Shown: positions 1-25,365, counted from the stretch's first letter. The stretch is 64,000 bases of DNA from Psammoneis japonica (GCA_008632985.1 QPGO01000088.1:124001-188000); one strand, 5' to 3'. The notes: generated by a model not told the origin, from the letters alone. A program made the numbers and translations.

Positions 1-530
1 AAAGAGTGAGCCTTGGGGTTGCAGCCGCATCTCCAAGCTCAAAAGCAAAAGATGTCCCTGTTTTTGAGTTGAAAGTGCACAAAAATGGATGCCCATCTCA
101 TGGGACACAAAGTGAGCAAGAAGCTTGCCAGATGATGACAAGCACACTGTGCATCATCAAGGAGGAGTCATTGAGAAGGAGTGAGAAGCACTGAAAAGCC
201 CTGCCTGGCTCCCCATGATGGGGCGGGCAACTTGCCACCTCACACCCATCTGAGCAGCGAGCAGAAGTTGTTGTGGGCAAGATGACACTTCTTGTTGTCA
301 GCTCCAATGTGCAATCTCTTTGCCAAATGCTGAGAACAACAACACATGCTGCCTTAAAGTGCTTGGGTTTAAGAAGAGAAAGAAGACACACAGCTCAGAA
401 AATGTCATGAAGCATCTCTTCAATGCCAGCTGTAAAAAGAAAATGTGTTGTTGCTTCTTCTCATGACTTCACAAAGAAGGGAGCTGTGTTTCATTTGAAG
501 TGGCACCAATGCAGGTGGATCCTTGTGTTA
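1..530. mobile_element. Edge of a decayed repeat (TpA- and CpG-depleted DNA)
   Basis: Almost no TA and few CG dinucleotides, TG/CA-rich; same composition as the identifiable transposons. No family motif recognised. Confidence 0.4.
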
Positions 531-738
531 CAAAATTGACCATTGACAGCAATGTTGACAATCTGACATTTGGTGTTCTGCATTGGACCAAATGGCACAG
601 ACAGCATGGGTGACTAAAACGACAGAAGAAGCCATGATGCAATATGAAGTTGTTGTAGCAAAGCCAACACCACTACAGTAGCTAGAGAGGAGGGTGCAGG
701 GTAAAGTGTTATTTGCATGTACCAAAATAAAGGATAGT

Positions 739-2399: not shown

Positions 2400-2787
2400 T
2401 CACGCATCAGGCAGGCTTCTTCATCGAACGATTCCGTGTCAATCAACCCACCCGTTTGCTCCCTTTCTCTCCATCGCGGCCACACCATCGCTGTCTGCAA
2501 TTGCACTGGTTACATGCCACCTGTGTGACTCTGCTGGATTGAAAGCCAGCAGTGCTTCCTCAACCCAGTCTCTGATCTCTCGAACCCACCAGCTCTCTTT
2601 GCTGGTTGCTTGTTGCTTCTTTGAGCTGCAGATGACTTTTCTCTTGACGATCCTGCCAACTTTTTTCGTGAAATCCCACCAATTTTTTTCTCAATGATCC
2701 TGCTGATGATGATTCTGATGATTCTTTTTACACCTCTTCTCCTTTGGTCTGCCGCACTGCCGATCCCTTTTCCAGCTGCCACGAGCG
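2400..2787. mobile_element. Left part of an older decayed element into which the Copia inserted
   Basis: TpA-depleted like 9904-10870; the two flanks join across the ATCAT duplication. Confidence 0.4.
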
Positions 2788-2792
2788 ATCAT

Positions 2793-3068
2793 TGACAGGA
2801 TTTGAACAGGATTCAGGTGCGCGCGAAATGTCGCGCGCTGTTTAGTTTGCCGCGCACAGTTTTGTGTGCTTCAGTTCCACGTGTTCGCGCACGATGTAGT
2901 TTGCTTTCGAGCCACAAGGCTCACAAGAACAATGACGGCAGCCCGATTGCACCGACTCACACGTCCTTCGGCTCCTGCAACGGTCTCTGAGCGGAGACTC
3001 ATCTGCTGTTTAGACAGCAGCAAGGAGTCATTGTTTGAATTCTTGCCATTTGCCTTCAATTTCTGTCA
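2793..3068 (+). repeat. 5' LTR
   Basis: Aligns without gaps to 9623-9898; 21 differences by eye, all transitions. Confidence 0.96.
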
Positions 3069-4005
3069 GATTGACAGTCTTGCTCATTGTCAACCCATTG
3101 AGCAACCGCCATCATCGTCGTTGATTTGCCGACGACGCCATCTCAATTCTGCGTGGACCTCCGCACATGTTCTACGTACATCGGCAAGTCTGCGTGCATT
3201 CAATGCCAGGCACTGGCAGGAATTTAACGTCACCGTCAAGTCTCCTTGCCGCTGGATGTCTGGATTGATTGTGCCACCTTTGATCGCTGAAGACATGCAT
3301 CAACGGTCACATCCAAGTCTGTCCTTGATCCTCATCCCTTGATGCACCCATTCATCGGTTAACGGTCAAGAACCCCACACACTCAAGGATCTTCATCGCT
3401 GAAGACACACATGTGTGCATGTCTTCACGGCCAAGAACTTGCACCCACTCTTCGGATTGCGGTTTTGCCACCACTCTACAAGCACACCGAGTCCATTGTG
3501 CCTGATCCACCCCGGACTGCTGGTGCTCTGCAGTTCTGCTGGGTCCACGAGGATGACTGTGAGAGCAAGCAGCCGTGGTTGCAGCCTGCGTTGGGGCGAG
3601 GGTGTTTTCCCGCGTTTGTTCGTTCGTCCACAGTGCCTGACGCCTGCGTCAACTGGCCAGCCTGATCGGGAAATCCAACCGACATAAAATGAGAACGGTT
3701 CGGGGGTCTTGTCCACCTCTGGTCAGCTTGCCTGCAGGGGTTTACAACCCGCCACTCCGCTCGCAAGCAACCCAAAGCGACACTGGCTGCAGGTTCCGAC
3801 GTGCCAGCACAACTCTACGGACCGGACAGGAAGTTTAGCACTTGACAACGAACGGGATGACAAAGCCCGGCGACTTCTGATTTTTAAGACAGTTCAAGAT
3901 TTCAAGTCAAGTCTGCCTCAAGTCAAGTCCATTCTCACCCAAGTTTCGAGTCTACCTTCGCTTCCCCAACCAGAATTGATTGTCCTGACACCACTTTTGT
4001 CCACC

Positions 4006-7000
4006 ATGGTTCTCACTCGTCAGCAACAAACCGATGGTTTCGAGCACGTCATTGGAACCGTGCTTGCCCAAGGTGCTGGGAGCCCTCTTCGTTTGGCTTT
4101 GACCCAAGACGGCACGGACTCGCATCAAGAACTGTTCACGTTCACACCGTCCCAAATCGACTCGCTTGAGTGCGACAACGGCACCAATGTGATCCCTTTG
4201 CCCCGCGGTTATAAGAACATGTCAGCAGCTCTAATTAGTCTGTACATTGTCAAAGCACATGAAGGTCTTGACGTTGCCAATGACTCCTCGTTGTTCACGC
4301 ATGACGAGTTCCTTGCCTGCTGCCTCAGCCCCGACTGCATGTCTTCTGTGTCCGTCAGCAGCTCACCCCTCGCACCTCCGCATGTCACCAACCCGACCAA
4401 GGCACGCGACCCGGTGCGAGACTTCAAGCGAGGCATCAAGCATGACCCCACCGCTTTCACGGCTCTCAAATCTGACAAGCAGTGGCACACTTGGCACACC
4501 TCACTTGTGGCACAAGCCCGTGCCCAAGACGTCGAGTGCACTCTAGACTCGTCGTACAAACCAACCAGCCCCGAAGACAAACTGCTCTTTGCTGAACAGC
4601 AAAAGCACATGTTTGCCGTCTTCGAATGCATTCTTCTCACCAACAAGGGCAAGGCTCTCATTCGCGAAAATGTGGGGTCTTCTGATGCCCAGACCGTCTG
4701 CCGCGCCTTGTCTGAGCATGCGCTCGCCTCCACCCGCGCATCTGTCGAGTCCTCCACCTTGCTCATGTGCCTTGCCACCGCACGTCTTGGTGATGGTGCT
4801 TGGAAAGGTCCGACCCACGGGTTCATCCTTCATTGGCAAGATCAGTTGCGCAAGTGCGAGGCACTCATCCCGGCCAGTGACCACTTCTCTGAAGGACAGA
4901 AGCGCGTCATGCTCGAGAATGCCGCACACCCTGTCGAGGAACTCCGTGCTGTCAAGAACCAAGCTGATCAGCATCGTACGCAGAGTGGCAAGAGCCTCAC
5001 ATGTGATCAACACTGTGGCTTGCTCCTCTCCGCGGCGGCTCAATGCAACAGTGCGTTTCAACCCAAGACGACACCTCGAGCTCCCCGACGTGCCACACAC
5101 GCACACGACGTCCACTCCGAGGAACCATCCGACGATGTGTTCTGCGACATTGACAGTGACATTGACGTCCTTCAGGCCAATGCTGCCTGCACCCGTGGTC
5201 CCAGCCTCACCGGTGACCAATGGAAACGTCTCCCTCCCGACCACCAACGGATTTGGGATTCATTGCCCCATTCCTCCAAGGCGATCATCCTTGAGCATTC
5301 TCGTCTGCCTCCCCGCAACCCGCGAGCCAGCAACTGCCATGAGTCCATTACGGCCAACCTTCACGACCAACGCCTTGGGAGTGACGGTGATGTCAACTTG
5401 TCCAACACGACTCCTGCTGACTCTGGTGACCCCGCTCCAAATGTGGGTGCCACTTCGGACAATCCCATCCTGGCGCACCTCACCAAGCGCAAGCCACTGC
5501 CACCCGGTGATCTGCAACGTCTGTTGTCTCCTAACCAAGCCCCCAACGCTAGTCAACCGGGGCCATCCGCCGCTCCCTCCACTCTGCCAGCTCCTGCCGA
5601 TGACATGGAACTTGGCGGCCGCACTCACCGCCACGTCAACAACCACAATGTCATTCACTCTGCCTCTGCTCATCGCTCCACACACACTGGTGCTCTAGTC
5701 GATCGTGGGGCCAACGGCGGCATTGCTGGTGATGACATTCGCGTCATTGCACGCACCTCTTGCCAAGTCGACGTTCAGGGCATTGACGACCATCAATTGG
5801 TGGACATCCCCATTGTCACCGCTGGTGCCGTCATTGAGACCCAGCGTGGTCCCGTCATCGCCATCCTCCATCAGTGCGCATGCACGGGCAAGGGCAAGAC
5901 CATTCATTCCTGCGGCCAGCTCGAATGGCACAAACAGGATGTCAACGATTGCTCTGTCAAGGTGCCCAACGGCTTGCAATGCATTGCCACTCCTGATGGC
6001 TGTGTCATCCCCATTGACATCAAGGGCGGCCTGCCTTGTGTTGCCATGCGACCTTGCACTGACGCCGAATGGGACACCCTGCCCCATGTCATCCTCACCG
6101 GTGATGACACGTGGGATCCTTCCGTCCTCGATCACTCTGTCACTGATGACGACCAGTGGCACGACGCGATCTCTGACCTGCAGGACGATCCCACTGCCAA
6201 CCTGTTTGACGAGTGCGGCAACTGCCGTCATCGTGTCGTTGTCAACGAGACCATCATGTCCGCTTCCTTGTCTGCCGATCACGCGTCCGCCCTTGATGAT
6301 CATCTCATTCCGAACGACGACGTGTTCTACGAGTGTCATCTACACGCGATTGACCCCAAGGATGATGACGTTCTGCCCCCGGAGCACACTGTGCAGCCCA
6401 AGGACCCCCCCTTCGAGTCTCTTCGGCCCCACTTTGGCTTCCCACCTGCCGATGCGGTCCGTCGTACTTTTGACTGCACCACGCAGCACGTCCGCGTGCC
6501 CGCCGGTGCACACCTTGGGAAGGCCTGCAAATCACCCAACCCCACCCTCAATGTGCACCGCCGCAACGAGCCCATCGCCACTGACACCGTTTGTGCCAAC
6601 ACCCCGGCCGTCGACTCTGGTTGCACCAGCACCCAACTGTTTGTTGGCGCTGAGTCTACCGTCACTGACGTCTGCGGCACCAAGACGGACAAGGAGTTTG
6701 TCAACACACTCGAGGATCAGATCCGTGAGCGTGGTGCCCCATCCAAACTCATTGGCAACCGTGCTCAAGTTGAGATCAGCAACAAGGTGCTCGGGATTCT
6801 ACGAGCCCTCTTCATCTCCAGCTGGCAAAGTGAGCCTCACCAGCAACACCAAAACTTTGCCGAGCATCGACACCAGACCGTGAAGCGCATGGCGAACACT
6901 GTCATGGATCGTTTCGGTTCGCCTTCCCACACATGGCTGCTGGCGCTCATGTGCGTGTGCTTCACACTCAACCACACAGCGTCCCCACGTCTCCACTGGC

Positions 7001-9609
7001 GCACACCCCTCGAGACTCTCACTGGCTCCACCCCGGACATCAGCCCATTGCTTCGCTTTCACTGGTGGGAACCCGTGCACTTCCACCTCGATGACTCCGA
7101 TTGGCCGCCCAAATCCTGTGAGTTGCGTGGACGCTTTGTTGGCATTGCTGAGCACGTCGGCCACCAGATGACCTTCAAGATTCTCTCTGACGAGACTCAG
7201 AAGATCCTCTTCCGGTCCAATGTATGATCCGCTGCCACCGATCCTGCCGTTCGAAACCTGCGTCTTGATCCTCCTGATGGGGAGCCACCTGAACCCATCA
7301 TCAAATCCCGCCATGATGACAACCCCGTCGATTCTCCTGATGGGGAGATCAGGACACCCAAGATGCCAGTTTTTGATCCGCAAGACATCATCGGACGCAC
7401 CTTCCTCATGCAGCCACAAGAGGACGGACAACGCCACAGAGCTCGCATCGTCAAGGCCGTCGAAGACCACGAATGGAAAGTGAGTGGCAATCCCGAGCTC
7501 ACTAAGTTCGTCTGCTCTGTCAACAACGACGAACATGAGGAAGTCCTTGCCTGCAACGACATCATGAATCACATTGAGCAAGAAGACGAAGACACTGCTG
7601 TTTGGAAATTTCGACGCATCGTGTCACACGAAGGACCTCTGAAACCTCATGACCCAACCTGGAAAGGCTCAAGCTACAACATCATGCTTGAATGGGAAAG
7701 TGGGGAGATCACGTCCGAGCCTCTTGCCATCATCGCCAAGGACGACCCCGTCACCTGCGCCATCTGTGCACGAGAGAACGGACTTCTCGACACTGATGGC
7801 TGGAAGCGGTTCGTCACCATTGCGAGGCGCCAGAAGAAGCTGTTTCGCATGGCCAACCAAGCCAAGCTTCGCTCCTTCCGCACTGCACCTCGCTACAAGC
7901 ACGGATGCGAAGTTCCCCGGAACTACAAACACGCCATGTCACCAGACGAACGCAACGGCAACCGCAAATGGGGAGACGCAGCTAATCTTGAGATGGACCA
8001 ACTCGGGGAATGCGAAGTCTTCCATGACTGCAGGCCCTTCGAGTCTTCCACTCCTCCTGCGGGACACAAGAAGATCCGAGTGCACCCAGTGCACGACGTG
8101 AAACACGACGGTCGCCACAAGGCACGACTCACAGCCGATGGGCACCTCACGGACGTACCCATCGACAGTGTCCACTCCGGAGCAGTCTCCCTCCGTGGCC
8201 TTCGGCTGATGATTTTCCTGGCCGAACTCAACGAGTTGGAGACATGGGCCGCCGACATTGGCAATGCCTGCCTTGAAGCCACCACCAAGGAGAAGCTCTA
8301 CATTGCAGCCGGACCCGAATTTGGCAAACTCGAAGGACACATCCTTGTCATCCACAAGGCCCTGCATGGACTGCGCAGCTCCGGTCTCCGCTGGCACGAG
8401 CGCTTCGCTGACTGCCTGCGAGCTGAAGGCTTCTTCCCCTGCCGCGCCGAACCCGACATTTGGATGCGCAGGAACGGCGACCACTGTGAATGCATTGCCG
8501 TTTATGTGGATGACCTCGCCATTGCTGTGAAGGACCCTCAATCTTTCGTCAACACTCTCACGGAAAAGTGCAAGTTCAAGCTCAAGGGTGCGGGACCCAT
8601 TGAGTTCCATCTGGGTTGCGACTTTTCCCGGGATCCCGACGGCACCTTGTGCCTGTCTCCGCGCAAGTGCATCGAGCGCATGGTCGACAGCTGCACCCAA
8701 CTGTTTGGGGAGAAACCTGCCACCAACGCCCTGTCACCTCTGGAGAAGGGTGACCACCCTGAACTGGACACTTCCGAACTGCTGGAGCCCAATGGCATTC
8801 ACAAGTTCCAGTCTCTTGTTGGTTCACTCCAATGGGCAGTGTCCCTTGGTTGAATTGACGTTGCAACGGCCGTCATGTCACTCTCTAGCTTCCGAGCTGC
8901 GCCCCGTCAAGGCCAGTTGGATCATGCCAAACGCGTCTGTGGGTGCCTCTCCAAGATGCGACACGGCGCTCTCCGCATTCGCACAGAAGAGCCCGACCAC
9001 TCGGATCTCCCTGCTCCAGCCTGTGAATGGATGCATTCCATGTGCGGCGAAGCAGAAGAGATGATCCCGAAGGACGCTCCACCGCCCCTTGGCAAGTTCG
9101 TCACTGCCACCCACTGCGTCGATGCAAACTTGCACCATTGCATGCTCACCGGACGCTCTGTCATGGGAATGCTCCACTTCCTCAACAAATTCCCGGCTGA
9201 TTGGTTCTCTAAGAAGCAAGCCACCGTGGAGACTGTGACCTGCGGGTCTGAATTTGTTGCCGCAAGGACTTGTGTTGAGCAGATTGTCGACCTGCGCATC
9301 ACCCTGCACTGCCTTGGCGTCCCGATCTGCAATGTCAGTTGCATGTTCGGTGACAACAAGTTGGTTGTAGACAGTGCCACCATCCCGCACTCCAAGTCAC
9401 ACAAGCGACACACCGCACTGTCGTTCCACCGTGTGCGTGAGGCAATTGCCTCTGGTCACCTTGAGTTCCACTTCATCGAAGGCTCCCGCAACCCTGCTGA
9501 CATTCTCAGCAAGCATTGGGGTTGCTCCCAAATCTGGGACCTTCTCCGCCCCCTCATGTTCTGGAACTTCATTCCATCTGAAGTAGAATCTGTTTCTGTG
9601 ACTCCTCAA
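4006..9609 (+). pseudogene. Copia gag-pol polyprotein, one frame broken by two TGA stops (7225-7227, 8851-8853)
   Basis: ORFs 3709, 7363 and 8875 share a frame. Protease LVDRGANGG; integrase region WQSEPHQQHQNFAE; RT DVKHDGRHKARL, DIGNA, YVDDL; RNase H DANL, GSEFVAAR, GDN, NPADILSKHW. Both stops fit CGA>TGA. The end is placed at a presumed erased TAA (now CAA, 9607-9609). Confidence 0.92.
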
Positions 9610-9622
9610 GCAAACTGGGGAG

Positions 9623-9898
9623 TGACAGGATTTGAACAGGATTCAGGTGCGCGCGAAATGCCGCGCGCTGTTTAGTTCACCGCGCACAGTTTTGTGTGCT
9701 TTAGTTCCGTGCGTTCGCGCGCGATGTGGTTTGCTTTCGAGCCACAAGGCTCACAAGAATGACAACAGCAGCCCGATTGCACCGACTTGCACGTCCTTCG
9801 GCTCCTGCAACAGTCTCTGAGCGGAGACTCATCTGCTGTCCAGACAGCAGCAAGGAGTTGTTGTTTGAATTCTTGCCATTTGCCTTCAATTTCTGTCA
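9623..9898 (+). repeat. 3' LTR
   Basis: Copy of 2793-3068, preceded by the PPT and followed by TSD ATCAT. Confidence 0.96.
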
Positions 9899-9903
9899 AT
9901 CAT

Positions 9904-10750
9904 CCGCCGCCGGTCGCCTCCCCCAGCTTCTTCTCTGCCACCCTCATGACCTCCTGCCACCTTCTCTCTGCAGCACACCTCTCTTGTTGCTGCGGTGCAT
10001 TCCTGCATCTCACCCTCAACTCTGCTCAGACCTGGTGTCCTCAAGACTCGCCACCTTTCATGTTCTGTGACATGGACTTGCTTCTTGTTGCGAGACCACA
10101 CTTGGCTGGCATCAAACTGGGTGCCCTTCTCCGATTGCCACCCACCTGGGCCTTCTTCCTGCTTCTCACCATTTTCCTCCATTTGTGATCCTTCTGCTGC
10201 CACCCCATTTTGCTCAGTTTTTTTGTCCTTTGGCCCCTCCCTGCTCTCTCCCCAAGTTCTCATCCTTTTCCTGCCCTCCCCGGGTCCACTGCTTCCTCCA
10301 CAAGAAGATTGGCACCACTTCCAACCAGCCCTCATTTCCCTTCTTGGCACTTAAAAACACTGTGGATCTCCAAGTTTGCACGCCATCCCCAGCTCTTGCC
10401 CTTTTCCTTTGCACATGCCTCCGTGCCTGTGAATCCAATGGCGAGCCTCCCCTCCCTTTTGTCTTTCAAGTTCTCATGCACCTGCCTTCTTCTCTCCTTT
10501 GACAAAACTTTCTCCACGCACATTGACAACTGCCTTGAGAACTCTTTTGTCACCCCTGACATTGCTGCAGTTGACCCACCCTTTCCTGGCACTCTCTCCC
10601 ACATGATTCCACCGCCTTCTCTTTCTGTTCCACCTGCTGACTCCCCTTCCATTTTGGCAGCCACTTCGATGCACGTTTCTGCTGCCCCTCATGTCCTCCC
10701 TCACTCTTGTCATCAGGCTCTTGATGTTTTCACTTGGTTTAAAAGCCCTC

Positions 10751-10788
<38 letters not shown>

Positions 10789-10870
10789 GGCCCTGCATGA
10801 TGCTTTGCACGTCCCTTCTGCTCTTCCGCTGCCACAGCTGCTTTTCCGTGCCTCCTTCTGCTGTTCCATT
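9904..10870. mobile_element. Right part of the older decayed element
   Basis: Pyrimidine-rich, nearly TA-free and CG-poor. Family not recognised. Confidence 0.4.
10751..10788. repeat. (GA)n microsatellite
   Basis: Read directly, with one interruption. Confidence 0.95.
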
Positions 10871-11410
10871 CTGTTCTCAATGGGCTCTTTAACCCTGTGC
10901 TTGGTCTAAACTCTCTGCTCCCGGTACGAGAGGGCCTTTCTCTAGTGGAGGTGCCAAAGTGGCCTGACCTCAGCTTTCTTACATGATGCCGCATGCGACT
11001 GTGGACTACCAACTGCCGGCCTCTCTAGAGGAGCAGTGTCACACCAATCGATGCAATTGCTATTGTGGCTGTATGAATATGAAGTGACAGCGGCGAAGCG
11101 ACTAAATCGGCGATCCATACCGCTAGAGTAAGCAGGGCCTATGAACGCCCACAATCTCCACAATGAACATGCTTGCAGGAAGTTATAAACTTTTTCTTAT
11201 TTTTCAAATAGCCGATGATGAAGGAACCGTTAGTTCCAGTGTGCAAAATTTTGTGCATGTACAAACACCACAAAACAAAACGATCTAGCCGGCCCCAAAT
11301 ATCTTTCTGCGAAAAAATACGTTTCCACACCGTAAATTAAACGTTCGGTGCGTCAACTTGTGGCCAACAATAGTTGGCTTTTCATAAAACTGTACAACTT
11401 TTAACAACCC

Positions 11411-12703
11411 CTACAAGCGTCCTGTCAACACTTGCCCGTTCACCAAGCACTGACCGCTAACCTGTGAAGCCTGCACATTCCCACCAGAGTGGTGGCGTTG
11501 ATGATACCCAGGAGCGGGAACCATTGAGACATCCATGCTACTGGGATTGTGCTGATAATGGACCATTCCGCCGTGAACAGGGTATGCAATGTTATCAACA
11601 ACCACGTACTGCTCAGTGGTCGGCATTCCAGGTGTTGAGTTTGCCACGACCGGAGGACTAACGCCCACGGGAATAATGGCAGGAGCACTGTTCACGGAAT
11701 AAGTAGTAGAGCACGACTGTTGACTTCCAGGGGTCGCTCCAGCCGATACCAGAGATCCGGCAATCCCTTTCGAGGCAACTGGCATTGAATGGTGTCTCTG
11801 CAACACATGAGACAAGTCCCCCACTATTCCCGAATCAGAGCCAAGCGGAAATACTGGTTTGCTTTGCTGCTCACCGGTAACTACCTGAAGAGGAGGAGCG
11901 CAAGGGTGCGCCGTCGGGGATGGAGTTATTTGAGCATGGTTGTTTGATGCACCTATCGATTGATGACCGTAATCCGCGTGGTGCATTGTTTGTGCCTGAC
12001 AATCAGCAGTAACGATGACATTTCCAGCCAGAGTCGGAGCAATCTGTGAAGATACCGTCGCCGAATGTGTCATCGTCTGGGGCTGTTGAACGTCGTGTAT
12101 ATTGACACCCGTACTTGGAGAATGAGACTGCAGCTCTGCTCGGTACTTTTGGAATAGCTCCGGAGTGACATGGAGACTAAAGTTAATCCGGAATAGGAAA
12201 TCGACTTCAAGACCGTTCATCTCTGAAACGAGGACTCCGCCCACCTTGGCATAGTAAGCATTGTTGTAGTAAGCATCGTCAAAGAACTTCGCCGCTAGGA
12301 GGATAGCGGTGATGACAACGCGGTGGACGTTCAACTCCGTAAGAAGAAAATTATTGCGCTGGATCAACCGATCGATGTAAATAAGCGCGAGGATAAAACA
12401 TTCGTTGGAACACGAAGCATATTTATGAATTCTGAATCGTTGTGATGTCATCCGAGTCGAAAGAAGCGGGGTGAGAACAAAAGCTAGGAGGAATTGCAAT
12501 GCAGTCGTTCTTCACTGACTGACTAACCTTTCCAAGTATTGATGGACACCAATTCCAGGTGCTTTCAGAGCATGAAATTTGGTGATTTGACCTGGATCGG
12601 CACGAGCAAGTGAAGCATTGGCCCCCACGAGCCGTTCGAGTACCGCCGCAAGGACACCAACAAGCGCCATTCCCTCGGCTGCTTGTTCTGGTGTCGTATC
12701 CAT
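11411..12703 (-). CDS. P/U-type (PHO80-like) cyclin; exons 12703-12528 and 12431-11411
   Basis: [39 protein letters not shown] and [32 protein letters not shown]. 96-nt intron 12527-12432 (AG|gttagt ... ttcag|A). Low-complexity C-tail. Start codon less certain. Confidence 0.88.
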
Positions 12704-14395
12704 TGTTGCGTTGTTATTCCAACCACAAACAAACAAAAATTAAATCAAGATTCAATGCTGCAAACAGCCTCTAACAAGGAGGCACGCTTATTGGCGATTC
12801 ATCTTGCGTGTATTCCCTTCCCAATGTATTCTATTATCTATGATGAAAATCTCTCGTGTATCGGTATCGTGTTGCCGTCGTCAAGCAGTCACGGCCTTTT
12901 CGCCCAAGTGTCAAAAGCCTCCGATACAAAGAGGGGTCGTTTCTTCTGCAAGAGAAAGCGATAACAAACACAAAAAATTAGTATCAAACCTGAAAACGTA
13001 AACACTGGAGATGATGACATAGCACATCGCACAAAACCAATAGCAGCGCACGGAATCTTATCCTCCACCTCCAAAATTACGTCAGCTTGGTTATCAGATT
13101 CCTTTGATATTCAATTTGCAGTAGTATTCCACGTGGAAAGGGAATCTCAAAAAAGGATCCCACGGAATCTGGTGCCTCAACCTGAGGTCGAGAATGCGCC
13201 ATCGCGCGTTCTCAGTCGTCGGAGGGGAAAGCAAGGAACGGTAGGCACCTTCCCGACCAAACAACATGAGGTATGTCGCTCCAATGCTGTCGCCAATTTT
13301 TGACTCAGAGCGTTTATTCAATGCAATTGTCGAGGATGAAAAACGGGGGTCGACTTACCGGTATAGTGGAAAGCTTTGATGGAAAGAGATTAGGTCAGGC
13401 GTTTTGCAAAAATGTTGTGGTCGTGAAGACTTTCTGACGACAATTTCTGGTGCATGTCGAATTCTGGCGCGTACGGTGAGACTGGTACAAATTCTACGAA
13501 AGAAGCATGTTATCTGGATATACAGCTTCATAAGATTGCATTTGTAGGCTCTAGAATATTAGCTTTTATCGTTATGTCCAGCTCTGAAGGCATGGTATCA
13601 ACGTAAGTGATCATGACGTAAATAGTGTGACGTTAGAGTCAGTCCGCCAGCCCCACTTTGTGTGGTGAGCCTTGTGTGAGAATTTGCGACTGAAAATTCT
13701 GACAGCTCAACATAAAATTACCTTCAGACATGAGGTTAATTCATATCTGTGGTTAGGATTAGTCCTTCGAGTCAACTCTCTGCTTCACTTTCCCGCCGGA
13801 ACGAGGATCACCTCTCTAGTAGCTAGAGTACTAGAGAGTAGCACCTCTAGGGCTACACCGTACCTACTCGAGTAAGGGGCTTACTCTAGAGAGTCCTACT
13901 TGTACAGCAACACTCTCAGAGCCTCTATTGTAGAGGGTAGAGTCACCCTAAACAGAGACCTATCTAGCTTTAGAGGTTAGCTCTAGTAGAGGAGTCTATC
14001 AGATGCGAACCCTTTCTACTAGCTACCAGGTACTGTATGTATTCTAAGCTTTCGGAAATTCTTGGTGCGACATGCGATACCCAGTGAAGGAGTAAGTCGT
14101 TCTCTAAGTGTCCTACTTTACGTCGGCATAGAGCAATAAAGATTAAAGAAGTACTAGGTGTACCTTCAGCTAGCTACGTTAGTTCTCGAACGGTCAGCCA
14201 CCTAATCTATGTGCAAGCAGCTCGCAAAGTCTTGCACTGAACGAAGCCACCATTGCATCCGTAAAACATAGAGTAAACGCCTCATCTCAATAACACTTGT
14301 GATTAAGAAAGGACAGAGTGACAGAATGACAGAATGACAGACATTTGCGGACGGTAGTTGTCTCTCGAAAGAAGCTGTCGGAATCTGCAGATCAG

Positions 14396-15941
14396 TCATG
14401 CTATTGCTCCTACATGCGTCAGCAAAGGACCAAGCTTTCCCTGTTGGTACATGGATACAGTCTCGTCACCACCTCCGATGCTCTTTCCACCAACAAAGAC
14501 ATTTGGCACTGTCCTCCTCCCTGTAAGTGCCTTTAGGCTGTCTTGTATTGCTGCCATTTTGTTGCCCATGTGGGACAAGTTTATGACGTGCGGTTTCGCA
14601 CCTTCCAAGTTCAGTGCCTCTAGCGCTTTCCGGCAGTAGGGACAAGATTGTTTGGAAAAGACAACCAAGGGGTACTTTTTCACTACCCTTCTAAGGCAAT
14701 CCATTGCAGACATGTCGCACTCTTCAGGGTTTCGCGGTTGTAGGCTACTATCTCTCCGAGCTGCAGATTGAGAAAGTGGGACAGACATCCGTACTGCTTG
14801 TCGCTTCAATCCATGTTGTTGTCTCAGCCAACGTTCCGCATCAATCGCTGCTTCTGCTCCTTCTGCTGATGCTGTGATTGCTTGTCGATACAAACTTTCG
14901 CTAACTTCCCCCGCGGCGAAGACACCAGGAACGGACGTTTCCCTCTTGCTCTTCAAACAATCATTCCGTTGTCGTCGAGGTCAACCGTTCCTTTGATCCA
15001 GTCCGTGTTTGGTTCAGCCCCAATCATGACAAAAGCACCATCGCACAGAACTTCTACGGCTGTGGCTTTATCACCACTACTACCATTTCGCTCGAGTAGG
15101 CGCCGTGAAACTCACCACTACTCGACACACTCCATTCGGACACCACGAACGGGGTTTTGATTTCGATATTATGTGTCTGTTTCATCACTTCCAAGGCACG
15201 CTTGTCTGATGCTCTAAATTCGTCTCGGCGATGAATCAAAATAACCTTTTTGGCGTGTCGTGCCAAGAGAATGGCGCCATCCACGGCAGCGTCGCCCCCA
15301 CCTACTACCAAGACTGTCTTGTCCGTGTACATGCTACCGTCACAAATTGCGCAATTATGCAGCGATTTTCCCCACATTTGTTTCTCTCCGGGCAGGCCTA
15401 AATGTCTTGGCGTGGCACCTGTTGCAACAATGACAGACCATGCTCGAAAGGGCTCGTTCATCTGTTGCGATTCCAACACAAACTGCTGCTCTTCTTTGGA
15501 ACGACTCAACTTGGAAACAAGCAAGCCCGCTGGAGCAAAGGTCGCACCCAAGGCAGTGGCCTGTTCTCGTGTTTGTGAAAGCCAGTTTGGTCCAGAACCG
15601 CCATACGACGGAAAATTCTCTAGCAAAGGCGTATCCGAAAGTAAGCCAGATTCACTCCCAAGCACCAGCACAGAAAGTCCCGCACGGGACGCAAAAATAG
15701 CAGCCGTGAGGCCCGCTGGCCCACAACCCAATACAGCAACGTCGTATACATTGTCAAGAGGTTGTCTCAAGGCAACGGCTCGTCTTGCAACTGGGGCAAC
15801 ATCTGGTTGTGTGGGGCGTACTACCATGTGTACAAATAGCCCAAAAATCGTCAATGCAAAGACCTTACAACTATTTCCCAGTAAGGACCGCTTCCTCGAC
15901 TTTGTTTTGTAATGAAGCGGGAGGCTTTTTCTTCCATTCAT
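14396..15941 (-). CDS. Low-MW (TrxB/NTR-type) thioredoxin reductase fused to a C-terminal CPYC glutaredoxin, with N-terminal hydrophobic segment; two apparent 1-nt frameshifts
   Basis: [38 protein letters not shown]; hidden middle frame [17 protein letters not shown]; then [19 protein letters not shown]; Grx [24 protein letters not shown]. Frame slips near 15099 and 14956. Confidence 0.85.
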
Positions 15942-16420
15942 ATCTTGGCTTTGTGGAGGACAAGGTGATGAAGCAAAAGTCTTGCTGCTACGGGACCGCA
16001 GCATTGTTGTCTCTCACTTCTCCCTTCTGTTTTGTCACTTCTTGTCGCAGATTGATTTCTTCTGCGAAAACTAACGAGGCAACCAAACACACACCCGAGA
16101 CACTGACAATAAGACAACCCATGCTCAGCTCGTTCCTCCGCGCTGGCTGCTGGCTGACGCACGCACCGTGTGAAATCATGGCCGTGCTTTTCTTTTTCTT
16201 CTCTCTTGGATGTGTTGGATGTTGTGATGTGATGGATGAGACTCGTCGACGAGAATAGGTTTGACGGATCTGTTGATGCGACAGTGGTGAACACTCATCA
16301 AATTCTCTACACTTGCATAGCCCATCGTTTCGATCAGTTTTCAAGGCTCAAGACCGTAGTGAAAAAGAACCTACGGATTTATAATTTTCGCAAGTCGTTT
16401 TCGTGGTGCGCAAGATCAGA

Positions 16421-18662
16421 ATGAAGCTGGGAGGCGCGCTTGGCATGTCCTTCGTTGCGGTTTTGTCGACGTCGGCGGTTCGATATGCCACGTCTTTTGT
16501 ACCCACGGCTCTAAAGTCGTCCAAGAGGGTGCTATCATCTAGTAACTTTGCTAGTGTCAGTAGACAGACTCGTTTCCTGGCTTCTGTTGCCGCTCAAGTT
16601 GAAACGAAAACGGAAGAACCAACGGAGCTTCCGACCAATGAGAATGATATGGAGCTGCTCAAAATTCGTCACTCCTCGGCTCACGTCATGGCCATGGCGG
16701 TACAACAGGCCTTTCCTGAGGCTCAAGTCACAATTGGTCCCTGGATTGACAACGGTTTCTACTACGATTTTTACTTTCCAGAAACAACCGACCCAGAAAC
16801 TGGTGAAACCATTCCGTCTCGTAAATTGACCGATCAGGATCTGAAAAAGGTAAAAAAGGCAATGGACAAGATCATTGGAAAGAACTATCCCATTACGAGA
16901 GAAGAAGTGACAAGGGAAGAAGCAAAACGTCGCATTGAGGAGATCGCCGAACCTTTCAAGCTTGAAATTTTGGATAGCATTAAGACGGAACCCATCACCA
17001 TTTACAAAATTGGGGAAGAATGGTGGGACTTGTGCGCTGGTCCTCATGTGGAGAGTACAGGCAAGCTACCGAGAAAAGCAATTGCACTGCAGACAGTAGC
17101 TGGTGCGTACTGGCGAGGTGACGAGAATCGCGAGATGCTTCAGCGCATCTATGCGACCGCATGGAAGAACCCACCTCAGTTGAAGCAATACAAGAAGATG
17201 GTGGAAGAAGCCAAGAAGCGTGATCATCGCATGCTGGGGAAGAAGCTTGACTTGTTTTCGATTCAGGTAAGTTGTTGTCTTGGAGCTTGGATGAGTTCTT
17301 TTTTTGTCGGTCCACATCCATGAGAGACTGAATGGTATTCTGACTGTCCCATGTCGCGCTAACCTTTTAGGAGGACGCGGGAGGTGGACTTGTTTTTTGG
17401 CATCCGAAGGGTTCAGCTATCCGTACAAAGATTGAAGACTTTTGGAAGAAGGAGCATCAAGATAATGGATACGATGTTGTGTACACCCCGCATATTGCAA
17501 ATCTGAATCTCTGGAAAACGTCGGGGCACTTTGACTTTTACCAAGAAGGAATGTTTGACCAAATGTCGATTGAAGACGAGGATTATCAAATCAAACCTAT
17601 GAACTGTCCCTTCCACTGTCTAATGTACAAGGACGAGCTTAGATCCTATCGAGATCTCCCCTTTCGATGGGCGGAACTAGGAACAGTCTACCGGTATGTT
17701 CAATTCTCGTATTGTGCTTTCGTGTCTAACGTTCTGCTTCTCTGATCTTACCACGTACCTCTCAAACTCTGACTGTTTTGTATGCAAGATACGAGAGGTC
17801 GGGTACCTTGCATGGACTGATGCGCGTCCGTGGTTTTACACAAGACGATGCGCACATCTTTTGTCTGCCAGAGCAGCTACAAGACGAGATTGTTAAAGTT
17901 CTAGACTTGACCGAGACGATTCTTTCTCGCTTTGGTTTTGACAAGTATGACATTATGCTTTCCACGCGACCAGACAAGTCGGTTGGGTCTGATCAAATAT
18001 GGGACGATGCAACTGCGGCACTTGAGGGAGCTCTCGAAGCCAAAGGCTGGGAGTATGGTATCGATGAAGGAGGCGGGGCGTTTTACGGCCCAAAGATTGA
18101 CTTGAAGATCCGAGATGCGATCGGGCGCACTTGGCAGTGTTCTACTGTTCAATGTGATTTCAATCTGCCTGATCGATTCGGTCTCGAGTATGTAAGCGCC
18201 GAAGGAACGAAGGAACAACCAATCATGGTCCACCGCGCCATCTTTGGTTCCATCGAGAGGTTCTTTGGAATCCTTGTAGAGAATTGCGCTGGAGACTTCC
18301 CACTCTGGTTGGCGCCTACTCAATTGAAGCTTCTTCCCGTAACAGATGCTGTGAATGACTACTGTGCCAAAGTAGCGAAGAAAGCGTCGCGGCTTGGACT
18401 TCGAGTCGAAGTCGATCGCGGAAACGAGCGACTTGGTAAACAAATTCGTAATGCAGAACAGCAACGCATTCCCATCATGGCTGTCGTAGGTATGAAAGAA
18501 ATGGAGTCCGGTAAGCTCGCGGTTCGTAGCCGTAAAGAAGGCGACCTTGGTTTGTTCAGCGTAAATGATCTTCTCGACGAACTTTGCCGATGCTCTGAAG
18601 AAGCAGAAGAGATGGTCCTTGTTGGAGAAGTAGAGGAAAAAGAGGTGGCAGCATCCGATTAA
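16421..18662 (+). CDS. thrS: Threonyl-tRNA synthetase, organellar (probably plastid-targeted); exons 16421-17266, 17371-17693, 17789-18662
   Basis: [76 protein letters not shown]. Two GT-AG introns restore the frame. Signal-like N-terminus ending ATS-FVP resembles the diatom ASAFAP motif. Confidence 0.95.
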
Positions 18663-18818
18663 CTTCACAGGTAGACCTAGAACTCCGTGCCGTTGCATAC
18701 CCGTGAGTACCTTTGGTAATGGCTTAATAAAAAGAATAGGTAGGTCAGGTATATAGATTTGACATCCTGTAGAGTGAAGAGTCAAGCATTCTTATTTTAA
18801 AATTGAAATATAGTCAAT

Positions 18819-19466
18819 TTAACTTGCAGTCTGCTTCTTTGCCTGTGTTCCCTCCCGGAATCCATTCTTGAACCGACGACTCATGGTCTTCATGTAACGC
18901 ATACGTCCAGTTCCAGTAGTGCGACGGCCCTTCGCCTTTGCTCCCCAATTGTAAGAACGCATTTTCTTGGCAGGGTATCCGCAGGAGGCACAGGTGCTCT
19001 TTTGGATGTGGTATGAAATCTTACCACATCGGCGGCATGCCGTGTGAGACTTGTTATGCCTTTTTCCGAATGAGGTTGTTCCTTTCGTCTGTAACAAGAA
19101 AAGATAGAGAAAAATGTGTATGTTAGCGAATTTCATCGTAGACAAATTGATGTTGCACAACGAGTGCTAACAATATTGCCGACCAAAGAAAAGCCATTGA
19201 ATACGATACGTAGCATCTTCGGCGACACAACATCGTTTTCGCGCCACCTTCAAATCTCAAAGAATTGCCAATAGGTTCTGGGTTGAAGCTATCGCCCACA
19301 GCAACAACGCGATCGGTACAGCGGCGGAGTAACGCATTCATTCGGCATAAACAATGGCTGTCCCAGTTTCTCAACCACACTGTACAGCATCAATCAAACC
19401 CCTCCTTGTTGCGGCACAAACACCAACGCTGCCGTTCATTCGAAAACGCAACGGAAAACGCACCAT
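18819..19466 (-). CDS. RPL37: 60S ribosomal protein L37 (eL37); exon 1 = ATG (19466-19464), exon 2 = 19088-18819
   Basis: [40 protein letters not shown]; acceptor ttgttacag. The donor ATG|gtgcgt is inferred. Confidence 0.92.
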
Positions 19467-20151
19467 CTTGACTCGACTTCTTGTCTGTGTTGCCTGCGGC
19501 TCTCGACACAGTGCCCCAGCTGCTGTGGATCGTACGTGTTGATCTACCAGGAATTACATACGATAAACGTAGTACTGAAGCATCGTAGAAATTCAAGTAA
19601 GCGGTATGAGGTTCATCAAGCGACGGACGGACGGATGGCCTTAGATTTTGAACTCTCTACTTCTACTTAGTAGCTCTACCGGTACTCTAAGTAGAGAGTT
19701 AGTAGAGAGTAGCTAGCTAGCTGTAGTAGAGTGGTATGTAAATTGGGGCGGGGATGGCTGGACGGACCCAAAGTGCATCCAAAGGGCTAGGGCGGGGCTA
19801 CGGTAACCCTCCAAGCCCTAGGATTTTAGTCTAGGCCTACAGTGCTATTCTAGGGACTAGTCATTGCAACAATGACAAGCCTTGCTCCATATTTTTAAGT
19901 AGTTTCTTCCATGCTTCGCAACTCGAAGTGTGGCACTTCAAATTCCAAGAGTATAGAATGAAATGGAGCATCCAAGGCTGGCCGCACGGTGTGCCTTGCT
20001 AAAAGCCTCGTATTCTTTCGGACACAGCATCTACCCACTTATACATCGAAAGTACCATATTGCTTAAGATGAGAGATGACCGAACCAGAATCTAGAGTGT
20101 CTGAAAAGACTACTTAGCAATCAGAACGACATTCCTACATGATTGTAAAGG

Positions 20152-22098
20152 TCATGACATTGCGGCGTTTACTATTAGTGGCTTGGAGAATTCCCACGGA
20201 CAAGGCTGCTTGCGTTGGATGAGATCTTCTTTCGGTAGTTTTTGGCCTAGATGTCTCATTCCCGACAAACTAATTCCCTGCAACAATTCTAGTGTCTGCA
20301 TTTCTCCCAACCTCACATGTGTCGTTGTCCAATTGCGGCTTTGAAAGGCTTCGCGAGTCAAGGTCGCAGCCAGTTTGGCTTCGTCAACAACAGTAGATTT
20401 AAACCTGCCCAGAGCGACCCCCGATAGTCGCGCCAAGCATTCCAGTGCACGAAACTCAAGGGCGTCACTTTGACGACCAACAAAAAAGGAATCAACTGTA
20501 TGGTTTTCTAATGTTTCTTCCAGCACAGTCTTGGCATTGCCGTCAAAATCGTCTTTTCTCAGCACCATGAGGCGACAGGTGGAAATCAATCTGCTCGCGT
20601 CGAACCTGAGGTTTCTGTGATCAAACTTGGGAATATTGAATGTAATGGGTGCGTTGGAAGACGTTGGTGGGTCTATTTGTGAATCCCGAGGTGGCATGAC
20701 GAAAATCCACCGATCCGACAAGTTGGAAATGTGTAGCAGCACCTGAAACTTAAGTCGCTTCAACTCGAACGCATCTGAATGAAGCTGTTCTTGTATACAT
20801 TCGGCATGCCCATCATCAAACTGCAGATATCGAACAAGCATCTCTTTTTCACGACGACCGATTGCTTGTGATGCTCTGTCATTGACACGGAGTGGCATGT
20901 ATGAGAACTGATTCTTCATTCCCACATCCAGAAGCCTGTGAAGCACCGCAATGCTAGCCTGTGTGTGGCCACTTCCGTCTCCGTTGACAAAACCAAACTT
21001 GGCAAACAGATGCGAGTCTGTATACTTGCCGTAGCTGTCAATTATTTCGTGTCCAGGCGCAATCCCCTGTGTCGATGCGTAAATGACAAAGGCTCGCTTT
21101 TCGGGTTTGTATCGCCATTCCACGTTTGGCTTTGCATGATGATTGTACATGTCAAGGATAGGAACCATGGCACGACAACCACGTGACAAGTCGACACCGT
21201 ATGTTTCATTTACGAATTTTAATTCGTCTTCTATCGTTGCAAACTCGTTTTCCCAGAGACCCTCTTCTGGCCCGGGTGGTCCCGGACCAAAGCTCCGACT
21301 CATGACGTTGATTCTCATTCTCGTGTATTCCTCAAGACTCACATCACGGAGAAAGACAGCAGATACGGATGCAAAAGCCTTGTACTCTGACACAAGCATG
21401 TCACGATGAGCCTTGGCGACCAGGAAAGAAGAGGAATGCGCTCCCAGTGCTTGGCTAAGTTCTTGCTCCGTCCATGCCATTGGATGAAACAAAGCCAATT
21501 CTTGATATGACGGTAAAGTGTTATAGTAGGCAACCAACGGATCTTCCTCGACACCAATGTGCTTATCGTTATGATGTCGACTCTTTTTAGCTATCGTGTC
21601 TTTCCGAACAAGGTATGCAGCAAGGTGAGCACCGCTGTCGAGTGGATTACCCGTTGCTCCATGTCGTGCCGTTGACAAGTCGTCCTTGACAAAAGAATCC
21701 CGCAACGCATCTAGATCCCAAATTTGCAAGTGTCGTGGGACAACCAGAATCACTTGTTTTGGAGCAATGTAACGTTTCGTCTTTTGCGTTCTGCGCACTG
21801 GTACCAATGCCTCATGGCAATAGCCGCCGTTTGGGTCGTTGCATACAAAGGACGCCATGAAGGATCGGAGTGTTTCCTCAACCAACTCATCATTCTGCGG
21901 GCTATTCCACAACATTCCCACCACAAGAGCAACAACTGCTACTCCAACGATATTCGAATAGGCCCGGACTCCACGTCTCTGCTTTTGTGAACACCTTTGT
22001 ATTCTCGTTTTCCAATCTCCATCTTCTTTGTACTTGTTCAACGCCTTGTTCTCGGGTGCAGAAACCTTTTGAAGACTTTTGTCACGATTTCGACCCAT
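20152..22098 (-). CDS. SET-domain lysine methyltransferase (Rubisco LSMT/SETD3-like) with N-terminal transmembrane segment
   Basis: 648-aa ORF; VMSRSF, MVPILDMYNHH, EIIDSYG..HLFAKFGF; hydrophobic IVGVAVVALVVGMLW. Confidence 0.82.
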   Translation of the reverse strand: MGRNRDKSLQKVSAPENKALNKYKEDGDWKTRIQRCSQKQRRGVRAYSNIVGVAVVALVVGMLWNSPQNDELVEETLRSFMASFVCNDPNGGYCHEALVPVRRTQKTKRYIAPKQVILVVPRHLQIWDLDALRDSFVKDDLSTARHGATGNPLDSGAHLAAYLVRKDTIAKKSRHHNDKHIGVEEDPLVAYYNTLPSYQELALFHPMAWTEQELSQALGAHSSSFLVAKAHRDMLVSEYKAFASVSAVFLRDVSLEEYTRMRINVMSRSFGPGPPGPEEGLWENEFATIEDELKFVNETYGVDLSRGCRAMVPILDMYNHHAKPNVEWRYKPEKRAFVIYASTQGIAPGHEIIDSYGKYTDSHLFAKFGFVNGDGSGHTQASIAVLHRLLDVGMKNQFSYMPLRVNDRASQAIGRREKEMLVRYLQFDDGHAECIQEQLHSDAFELKRLKFQVLLHISNLSDRWIFVMPPRDSQIDPPTSSNAPITFNIPKFDHRNLRFDASRLISTCRLMVLRKDDFDGNAKTVLEETLENHTVDSFFVGRQSDALEFRALECLARLSGVALGRFKSTVVDEAKLAATLTREAFQSRNWTTTHVRLGEMQTLELLQGISLSGMRHLGQKLPKEDLIQRKQPCPWEFSKPLIVNAAMS

Positions 22099-23671
22099 TA
22101 CAGACGCGTTTCCTTCTTCAAACTACACAGTTCACTTCCTTCACACCCACGCATCGAGCATTCGATCATCAACACGATGATCGATGATCCATCTCTACCT
22201 TCGAATCTCAAGTCACAAGGAAGCTACCTCTACTCTCTACCGGTAGCTAGAGAGAGGTCAGAAGTAGCTAGCTAACTCTAGTAGTAGAGAGTAGATAGCT
22301 CAGGCGATGTTAGAAGCGCTTGCTTGGCATGGGCAGCCAGCAGTCGGCAAGGGCTGTGTGCCAACTGGTGCGCACATCGGTCAAAGGACAGACGATGCTA
22401 GCCTGTGCTTCATTCAGCAAGAAATAGACGCGACGACGACCGACGCACATAGTTTCCCTCTAACCAAATGCATCGATAGATGGCAACATGCGTGCTAGAG
22501 GCCCTGTTACCGGTGCGATCCATTATCTCATGGTAACGCCCATCATCTATTTCTGGCAACAAAATGGCTGTAAACTGCAATCTAAACTGCAGGCTTGAAC
22601 ACAAAATTGCACTGAAATCCCCAAGCAATCCACATGTCCGAGTTAACAAATCGTGACTGTCAGAGGTTGATTGGCCGTTCCATCTGCCAAACACATTGAA
22701 CACAACACTTTCTGCCTTCCAGCATGCATGTACAAAATGTGCAAAATGCCACCATTGGCCCGGACCTCAGCTGGAAGACACGCCACAGCTTCAACAAATG
22801 CAGCGACAGCTTCAGCGGGGTCGACTCGAATGTCATGTCAATGGGTCTCCGAGCTCATGTTGCCCCATTCTCCAACAAGGACTTCTTTTCTTGCACAACA
22901 GCTGAGGCATCTTGAAGGGTTGCATGTGACATGCATGTAAAAGCAGCGGTCTTCTTCTTCATGTTTCGGACGTGTTCCAGTCCCAGGTGACGCACAAAAC
23001 GACAATCGGATTTTGAATGTAATTTGTGTGTCTTCAAGTGCATGCAGCATTTCAATGTGAAACACTTAGATGGATTGACTTTTGTGGGCTTCTAGAGCAT
23101 GGACATTTAAATGGTTTTTTGTGGGGCATTCAAATCCTCATGGGACATGCATCACAAACTTCCTCAGCAGACTCAGTGCTGATTGTGCGTCAGTGGATTC
23201 ATGCAAAGATTTTTTTGCAGGCAGAAAACCCACCAAGCAGCATCCTAGAATGATGCATTTGGGTGACATCCAAACAACGGCAATGTTTTCGCCGAAAATC
23301 ATCCGTTGTGTTGCGAATCTTTTAACGCAATGAAAAACACAGATGTCACAATGACGACGACATTGCAACACTCACACGAGTCTTGTCAGTGTTGCAAAAC
23401 ATTCACATTTGCACAAATCTACACTTTTGGTGGTGAAAGTTCGATCGTGAGTTGGGGACCGCGCAAAAATCGCGCAAATGTCGTTTTTGTGCACGATTTG
23501 GTTCACGTGCGGCTGGAACACGTCTTCGGGGGAAAGTGTCGCTGCCAAGAAAACAACGCCAAGCAAACACCGAGTGTGAATGTGTCAGAAATGCCTTCCA
23601 ACAAGGGACACTGTGTTGGGGTTCTCCAGTGTGCCAAACACCTTTGGCGCTGACAAGACTCCATTTCGTCT

Positions 23672-23733
23672 TGCCCAACCTGCAAAGCTTGATGATGCAA
23701 GCTTTCGCTTTTGCTTCATCAGCGCGGTTGGCA
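23672..23733 (-). ncRNA. Hammerhead ribozyme-like motif (type I), copy 1
   Basis: Minus strand CCAACCGCG-CUGAUGA-A-GC-AAAA-GC-GAAA-GCUUG-caucau-CAAGC-UU-UGCAGGUUGG. Confidence 0.65.
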
Positions 23734-24029
23734 TTTTTCTCGTGAGCCAAAAAAGTCGAGATCCGCATTTTCAATGGCTGAGGTTGCAGCTGACCTCACT
23801 TGCCGTTAAAAAACAACGGGCCACCAGGAACGTGCCAATGCATGCTGTGCATGCAGTCTTTGCCCAAAACTTCGTTGTGGAGAAAAAAGTGGGCATCGTC
23901 TTCTCAGTTGATGGTCTGAGCCTGCGAGGCAAAGACTGGATGGCATGGACTGGCCTGCTGTCATTTGGTGATTGGGGTTTTGTGTGACCCTAAATTCAAA
24001 AAAACTCAAATGGGCGTAAAAAGGTCGTC

Positions 24030-25244: not shown

Positions 25245-25306
25245 TGCCAACCGCGCTGATGAAGCGAAAGCGAAAGCTTGCATCGTCGAGCTTTGCAGGT
25301 TGGGCA
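25245..25306 (+). ncRNA. Hammerhead ribozyme-like motif (type I), copy 2
   Basis: CCAACCGCG-CUGAUGA-A-GC-GAAA-GC-GAAA-GCUUG-caucgu-CGAGC-UU-UGCAGGUUGG. Confidence 0.68.
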
Positions 25307-25365
25307 AGATGAAGTGGAGCCTTGTCAGTGCTGAAGGTGGTGTTCAGCACATTGGAGAACCCCAA

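Follow-up and report, generated by a model that had tools for sequence, protein, structure and literature searches.

Why should a retrotransposon whose reading frame is almost unbroken encode next to no tyrosine (Tyr)? The question is raised by positions 4006-9609 of a 64,000-nt stretch of the Psammoneis japonica assembly (GCA_008632985.1 QPGO01000088.1:124001-188000; the whole stretch is termed the window here), which form the interior of a Ty1/copia-type long terminal repeat (LTR) retrotransposon. A sequence-only reading of this interior had proposed that adenines at TpA are mutated in repeats to give TpG or CpA, at the level of DNA and in the opposite direction to fungal repeat-induced point mutation (RIP). 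The observation is confirmed here, and the interpretation proves right in substance and no longer unprecedented. We are fairly confident that a host process mutates TpA to TpG or CpA in the integrated transposon DNA of this probable diatom and spares the neighbouring genes.

TpA is strongly depleted in the element. TA occurs 30 times in 4006-9609 compared with 257 expected, and 200 mononucleotide shuffles of the same interval gave a mean of 258 and a minimum of 232. The observed/expected ratio (O/E) is 0.12 for TpA, with 1.61 for TG and 1.35 for CA, which is the direction opposite to RIP that had been claimed. The combined excess of TG and CA (314) is set against a combined deficit of TA and CG of 297, and the strands are affected about equally (TG excess 173, CA excess 141). 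The associated statements that CpG is still plentiful and that A-runs are intact hold as well (O/E 0.84 for CpG and 1.06 for AA). RIP, which operates in Ascomycota, is similarly a context-specific transition hypermutation at the DNA level that disables mobile DNA and spares genes. It differs in that RIP converts CpA to TpA, so that TpA rises and stop codons are created, whereas here TpA is destroyed, GC rises and the change is unable to produce a stop.

Such a process would remove Tyr codons by turning TAY into TGY or CAY, and the proteins of the element conform to this expectation. The Tyr counts reported earlier (none in the RNase H open reading frame (ORF), five in the reverse transcriptase (RT) ORF and about four in the first ORF) are reproduced as 0, 5 and 4; the first ORF, read from 4003, comprises 1074 aa with 35 Cys and 60 His. 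The motifs quoted as carrying Cys or His where Tyr is expected (GNACLEA, KALHGL, SVHSG, HCECIAVYVDD, PRKCIE, RVCGCL, THCVDANLHH, TCGSEF and KHWGC) are present in the translation. A consensus of 55 sequences reads NAYLEA, KALYGL, SVYSG, YEYIAVYVDD, KYIE, GYL, HYVDANL, TYGSEF and HWxY at these motifs, so the expectation of Tyr stands at most places; it does not stand at SCMFGDN, where the consensus has no majority residue. In the RT alone, Tyr is kept at 4 of 17 columns that are at least 70% conserved, with Cys at 8, His at 3, Trp at 1 and Phe at 1 of the others, and every non-Tyr residue type is retained at 75-100% in columns of the same conservation. When the RT and RNase H were aligned to 53 homologues and columns conserved in at least 60% of them were considered, Tyr was kept at 5 of 28 columns (Cys 16, His 4, Trp 1 and Phe 2 at the remainder), and conserved non-Tyr columns were kept at 430 of 488. 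Tyr content averages 4.3% in homologues and is 0.9% in the element; the changes also reach Tyr columns that 90% or more of the homologues share.

The context of these substitutions was obtained by comparing the element with conserved homologue residues, with only single unambiguous base changes counted. An A follows the changed base at each of the 8 inferred T>C sites, and a T precedes it at 19 of the 26 inferred A>G sites, so that the TpA-specific loss runs from TA to TG or CA as had been supposed. A spectrum lacking any TpA excess, which the sequence-only reading had named as contrary evidence, was not found; the inferred changes concentrate at TpA. Inferred C>T changes lie before G (3/3) and inferred G>A changes after C (5/6), and the same comparison contains 11 transversions. 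Two context-bound processes are thus seen, with TpA>TpG/CpA dominant and CpG>TpG/CpA the weaker of the two.

The LTR pair provides timing. Both LTRs of an insertion derive from the same template and begin without differences; the duplicated target site ATCAT on either side of this element points to a single insertion. The two copies differ at 21 positions without gaps: five adjacent doublets read TG in one LTR and CA in the other, three sites pair TA with TG or CA, six sites pair CG with TG or CA, two are other transitions and none is a transversion. One TA and 17 CG are shared. TG/CA doublets by themselves were dropped as proof of ancestral TA because an ancestral CG gives the same doublet. 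CpG loss estimated from the LTR counts is ~0.15 per site per LTR, which predicts ~0.26 discordant double events (probability of at least five, 8e-6); the five doublets therefore mark ancestral TA, double events at CpG being too few to explain them. The counts of one shared, three single and five doublet sites are reproduced when the insertion is modelled with ~14 TA, 82% of which are lost in each LTR. Arithmetic on these small counts gives ~1.7 events per TA since insertion, 0.16 per CG and ~0.005 per other base, from which TpA loss outpaces CpG decay roughly 10-fold and other substitutions by about two orders of magnitude. The action at the DNA level that had been postulated is thereby supported, since the LTRs of a single insertion came to differ after integration and mainly at TA-derived sites.

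CpG decay through methylation and deamination also ends in TpG or CpA and is the second process here, as seen at six LTR sites, in both TGA stops of the element and in CpG O/E of 0.06-0.47 across a degraded-repeat island farther along the window. Unlike the TpA process, it offers no route from Tyr codons to Cys or His codons, and it is ~10 times slower (element CpG O/E 0.84, TpA 0.12).

Other copies of the family and its relatives allow the changes to be followed beyond one insertion. No difference separates contigs of the public sequencing run X1 from the unique flank 1-2820, and their summed depth is 60,000-140,000 over the element compared with about 55-65 on the flanks, which indicates a very abundant family, with perhaps some 1000 copies as an order of magnitude. 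Copies in X1 with a likeness of 90% or more vary at 402 places, 361 of them transitions, and contigs of X1-X4 have the same transition-dominated variation. For most of the 39 element variants available in detail (among 40 of 426 variants), the window copy has TG or CA and CG occurs elsewhere, which is CpG decay private to the window copy. Four CA versus TG doublets also occur among them, and TA is retained by a large share of other copies at 3128, 3192, 5113 and 9780. Of 31-letter words sampled from 2500-10500 (n = 828), 56% occur exactly in X1; such matches are hard to square with reads that carry TA because a former TA site falls every ~24 bases.

Homologues in other public records have independent versions of the same change. 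P0083, one of the 120 best homologues, has 0.85% Tyr, and eight unmutated relatives from a metagenome scan (L001-L008; 76-82% amino-acid identity) served as controls, with TpA O/E of 0.44-0.64 (0.57 for L001). The 36 Tyr of L001 correspond in P0083 to His (15), Cys (11), Tyr (7), Phe (2) and Ser (1), and no Tyr of P0083 stands opposite a non-Tyr residue of L001. The predicted change is found in 39 of 99 TA-bearing codons, compared with any change at all in 97 of 720 other codons. In an exhaustive search, Tyr was below 2%, with Cys and His both raised, in 7 of the 150 best cluster representatives. These low-Tyr proteins differ from the window element in their patterns of Cys and His at the 28 conserved Tyr columns, which marks the events as independent and not as one inherited trait. 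The sequence-only reading would have been undone if all relatives already had Cys or His at these sites; instead, Tyr is conserved in homologues and the patterns differ. Two further proteins, P0051 and P0110, have intermediate Tyr (2.3% and 2.75%) and raised His (~5%) and may be partly mutated copies.

Restriction of the loss to mobile DNA can be judged from the rest of the window (Table 1). TpA O/E falls from 0.63 for genes (464 TA observed and 742 expected in 11400-22200) to 0.12 for the element and 0.07 for the island, and TA-poor domains stop within ~100-300 nt of the gene blocks at 615-2377 and 10890-22650. In this window the claimed restriction therefore holds as confinement to transposon and relic domains, with ordinary TpA in genes; repetition itself would be one candidate trigger, beside foreignness and chromatin state. 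The host genes have long uninterrupted ORFs, and the nearest language-model clusters of the SET-domain protein (score 0.98) and the cyclin (0.94 and 0.93) lie in Bacillariophyta, two look-ups that serve as a lead towards a probable diatom host. The element is inserted in an older relic in which 300-nt bins of the right half contain 0-1 TA (12-17 expected) and 4-8 CpG (16-21 expected). In the island, measured over 24000-60000, TA occurs 159 times compared with 2441 expected and CG 532 times compared with 2057 expected; the excess of TG and CA is 3597 and the deficit of TA and CG is 3807. Eight repeat pairs within it have 38 TG/CA doublets and 40 CpG-type differences, and two copies of an RT-like ORF (23994-24869 and 33271-34248) appear by eye to have Cys in one and His in the other at the same place. 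The second Copia-type element, which is unrelated to the first, keeps conserved Tyr at 1 of 14 places when compared with 10 homologues (Cys 6, His 3, Phe 3 and Trp 1 at the others), and in it 6 of 8 inferred T>C changes precede an A and 10 of 14 inferred A>G changes follow a T. Young elements have lost TA and kept CpG, whereas old relics have lost both, which agrees with the LTR clock. The process is thus specific for TpA, runs in one direction, follows integration, proceeds independently in each copy and each LTR, is confined to particular domains and recurs in several families.

Table 1. Features of the window, with positions counted from its first nucleotide.
Feature	Position	Strand	Basis or remark
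TA- and CpG-poor relic at left end of window	1-600		dinucleotide bins
Older relic hosting the insertion, TA- and CpG-poor	left half ~2380-2792; right half 9899-10880		dinucleotide bins
Target-site duplication, left copy ATCAT (5 bp)	2788-2792		sequence read directly
Ty1/copia-type LTR retrotransposon	2793-9898	+	4006-9609 is the element interior
5' LTR, 276 nt, TGACAG...CTGTCA ends	2793-3068	+	gap-free alignment to 9623-9898, 21 mismatches
First ORF, presumed gag-protease-integrase	4006-7224	+	first Met at 4006; stop-to-stop frame 3688-7224
In-frame TGA between first ORF and RT ORF	7225-7227	+	sequence
RT ORF (RVT_2), 541 aa, 5 Tyr	7228-8850	+	Pfam PF07727
In-frame TGA at RT/RNase H boundary	8851-8853	+	homologue consensus Arg (SLGRFDI); query X at that conserved-Arg column
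RNase H ORF, 273 aa, 0 Tyr	8854-9675	+	aligns to C-terminal part of homologues
3' LTR, 276 nt	9623-9898	+	alignment to 5' LTR
Target-site duplication, right copy ATCAT	9899-9903		directly after 3' LTR
Host genes (internal control): cyclin, thioredoxin-reductase/glutaredoxin, threonyl-tRNA synthetase, SET-domain protein	10890-22650		ordinary TpA
Degraded-repeat island, ~37 kb	23100-60400		TpA O/E 0.02-0.14, CpG O/E 0.06-0.47, TG and CA O/E 1.4-2.3
Second Copia-type element, unrelated, running off the window	61829-64000	-	RVT_2 E 5.6e-15; TpA O/E 0.11, CpG O/E 0.94

Assignment of the element to Ty1/copia agrees with its LTR ends (TG...CA) and 5-bp target duplication, both of which are present, and with the RT ORF, which matches PF07727 at E 1.8e-23 (83.8 bits, cut-off 31.6) and has ~1900 homologues, mostly metagenomic, the best at 64% identity. 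A DDE-like stretch upstream of the RT, where an integrase is placed in this group, was seen by eye only and has no Pfam match; Pfam searches of 4003-7224, with a threshold as loose as E 5, gave neither a gag nor an integrase domain. Diatom Ty1/copia elements of CoDi type (Maumus et al. 2009, PMC2806351) are similar in being RVT_2 LTR elements with marine-metagenome homologues, and hypermutation, TpA, RIP and dinucleotides are not mentioned in that paper.

A single reading frame extends over 3688-9675 and is interrupted by two TGA only (7225 and 8851), or two stops per ~1990 codons. The TGA at 8851 is likely a CGA>TGA change at CpG because the homologue consensus has Arg there. This openness is explained by the genetic code: A>G or T>C at TpA cannot make stop codons, and TAA can become only TGA or CAA. 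TAA and TAG, counted on both strands, occur at 4 per kb in the element and 21 per kb in genes, and in both the element and the island each of the six frames has stretches of 130-440 aa free of stops. A near-intact frame is therefore uninformative about activity, and dead elements that have been mutated keep long ORFs and become annotated as proteins. Public protein sets include Tyr-free 'hypothetical proteins' (P0083, P0157, P0192 and P0276).

Surviving TA sites hint at a wider sequence preference. Among survivors in old domains, the target A is followed by A in 55% of cases (21% in genes) and by T in 8% (22% in genes). TTAA makes up 50 of 176 surviving TA in old domains compared with 27 of 656 in genes, and ATAT, which occurs 28 times in genes, is absent among the survivors. 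In the comparison of P0083 with L001, none of 10 ATAN Tyr codons survived. These contexts suggest a neighbour preference of TAT over TAC and TAG and of these over TAA, although re-creation of TTAA by other mutations is also possible.

A closely similar process has been reported once before. A preprint documents that integrated viral DNA of the chlorarachniophyte Bigelowiella natans undergoes TpA>TpG/CpA hypermutation de novo (Mettrop et al., bioRxiv 10.64898/2026.01.13.699255, 2026-04-14), which overtakes the earlier remark that no description was known. The integrated DNA is that of nucleocytoplasmic large DNA viruses (NCLDV) and virophages, and in mutation-accumulation lines two affected viral regions had ~6e-7 mutations per site per generation. 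Of 231 hypermutations, 230 were A>G or T>C, with every one at TpA; the targets include a viral insert present as a single copy, and reverse-transcriptase and DDE domains are over-represented among coding sequences poor in TpA. Its authors propose an ADAT2-like adenine deaminase acting on DNA, as a candidate only. B. natans and the present host are alike in A>G and T>C changes at TpA, in clustered TpA loss with CpA and TpG gain and in the affected DNA being mobile or foreign while genes are spared; the restriction to A>G and T>C is found here too, with an additional CpG-type C>T/G>A component. They differ in host (Rhizaria and a probable diatom), in evidence (de novo events with moderate depletion, Rho 0.45 in the NCLDV region, and comparative evidence with almost saturated depletion, O/E 0.02-0.14, here) and in target (viral inserts there and LTR retrotransposons timed by LTR divergence here). 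The element records the same kind of process as the recently described TpA hypermutation of B. natans. The word 'diatom' does not occur in the preprint, and literature searches in open full text, with subscription journals and preprint supplements outside their range, found no diatom report. Animal ADAR and APOBEC editing also deploys deamination against mobile elements, with a 5' U preference in the case of ADAR; the substrates there are RNA or single-stranded replication intermediates, before or during integration, whereas the LTR comparison places the changes described here after it.

What kind of chemistry could produce these changes? The process acts after integration and independently on each copy; we read it as A>G on either strand at TpA, and a targeted enzymatic step is probable. 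Our first choice would be enzymatic deamination of adenine to hypoxanthine (read as G) in DNA at TpA, which may be directed to silenced chromatin by silencing marks or small RNA; adenine deamination in DNA is the leading guess for a candidate enzyme. The main alternative, though unlikely, is that thymine is the base attacked, with T at TpA oxidised or otherwise modified in silenced DNA (e.g., to 5-hydroxymethyluracil, in the manner of TET/JBP enzymes) and pairing with G to give T>C. T>C and A>G are inseparable in all counts because TpA is a palindrome, and the 5-hydroxymethyluracil of dinoflagellates is said to favour TpA and TpC; however, there is no loss at TpC here (O/E 1.13-1.14), and the B. 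natans authors favour adenine deamination. The sequence-only reading had also listed error-prone repair of the Pol eta type among its candidates. Pol eta favours A>G at WA with TA as the hottest site, and repeats do recombine, so patch repair at WA motifs or GC-biased gene conversion among repeats might be entertained. Such an origin is very unlikely, and Pol eta fits poorly: neither AA (O/E 1.06-1.07) nor AT (O/E 0.94-0.98) is depleted, the 21 LTR differences include 0 transversions, inferred T>C changes lie at TpA in 8 of 8 cases, and biased gene conversion would act in every context.

Three other explanations fare worse than adenine deamination after integration. Transposon RNA could have been hyper-edited from A to I by an ADAR- or ADAT-like enzyme with a 5' U preference before reverse transcription; the neighbour preference of ADAR, as cited in the B. 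natans preprint, is similar to A>G with a 5' T, and all identified targets in the window are retroelements. RNA editing is nonetheless excluded as the main source because the LTRs differ at 8 TA-derived sites, and as an overall account it is highly improbable: the fitted model needs ~14 TA at insertion, the strands are about equally affected, and the targets in B. natans are DNA viruses. We give hardly any credence to an artefact of assembly, base-calling or polishing, in which a modified base is miscalled in a strand-specific manner. The platforms of the assembly and of X1 are unrecorded, and either miscall is conceivable in principle where the modified site is a palindrome, but the exact occurrence of 56% of the 828 31-letter words in X1, the same variation in contigs of X1-X4, the signature in eight proteins from other public records and the Illumina mutation-accumulation data for B. 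natans all speak against it. Equally implausible is a family-level cause in composition or selection, whereby Copia lineages avoid TA and Cys and His are functional lineage traits. The abundance of the family (depth 60,000-140,000) and its almost intact frame would suit such a cause; yet the frame proves nothing where mutation cannot make stops, divergence between the LTRs at TA sites followed insertion, change has reached Tyr columns shared by 90% or more of the homologues, the choice of Cys or His differs between copies at the same column, and other copies retain some TA.

Several points weigh against a host process that mutates TpA in integrated transposons. Seven inferred A>G changes lack a preceding T, and 27 differences are ambiguous. 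Tyr>Cys exceeds Tyr>His by 16 to 4 (p 0.012), a skew that is absent in P0083. GC content is 57% in the element and 46-47% in unmutated relatives of another family, and TA loss accounts for only ~4 points of that gap. The variant detail covers 40 of 426 variants, and X1 is one sample from one study, possibly the assembled sample, with no platform on record. The island lacks any recognised protein domain: its 77 ORFs of at least 130 aa (within 23406-60443) have no Pfam match at E<=0.001, tblastn with 13 Copia proteins found nothing in it, and the RT-like ORF at 33271-34248 has no homologue among longer proteins and no Pfam match at E<=5.

Some smaller features of the window are recorded here. 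An inverted repeat of ~415 nt with 89% identity (23608-24019 and 24957-25373) flanks the RT-like ORF at 23994-24869, which has an FIDD motif, and the bracketed ORF may be the relic of a retroelement with inverted terminal repeats, for which no family was recognised. A tandem repeat in 6-nt register (25370-25442) abuts the only two N of the window (25443-25444), which are probably an assembly gap inside a microsatellite. The TA-normal spacer between the island and the second Copia-type element contains a direct repeat (60536-60732 and 60876-61074, 77% identity) in which 18 of 40 differences are transversions, unlike the TA-poor repeats. Among the host genes, two adjacent ORFs that resemble, as judged by eye, a thioredoxin-reductase-like flavoprotein and a glutaredoxin-like CPYC domain occupy 14396-16013 on the minus strand and are possibly a fused or two-exon gene. 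X1 contigs differ from the window in 13964-17624 by small indels (+TAGG, -8, +A, +AAG and +GTA) at full contig depth, which is allelic or strain variation in non-coding parts.

With these findings TpA hypermutation reaches a further major lineage and, beyond viral inserts, another class of mobile DNA; the B. natans preprint is the sole earlier report. The LTR pair supplies an internal clock by which TpA loss is ~10 times CpG loss, and the suggested extended sequence preference could serve as an enzyme fingerprint. Some diatoms are genetically transformable, and such species could make a hunt for the enzyme practical. A wider proposal, which we put forward tentatively and with somewhat divided confidence, is that diatoms carry a dedicated TpA editor of new retrotransposons, which would act faster than 5-methylcytosine decay, take TAT first and TTAA last, and be the same system as in chlorarachniophytes. 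If this is true, TpA editing would be an old genome-defence pathway of the lineages that unite stramenopiles, alveolates and rhizarians (SAR), and would also be why protein databases fill with pseudo-ORFs that lack both Tyr and stops.

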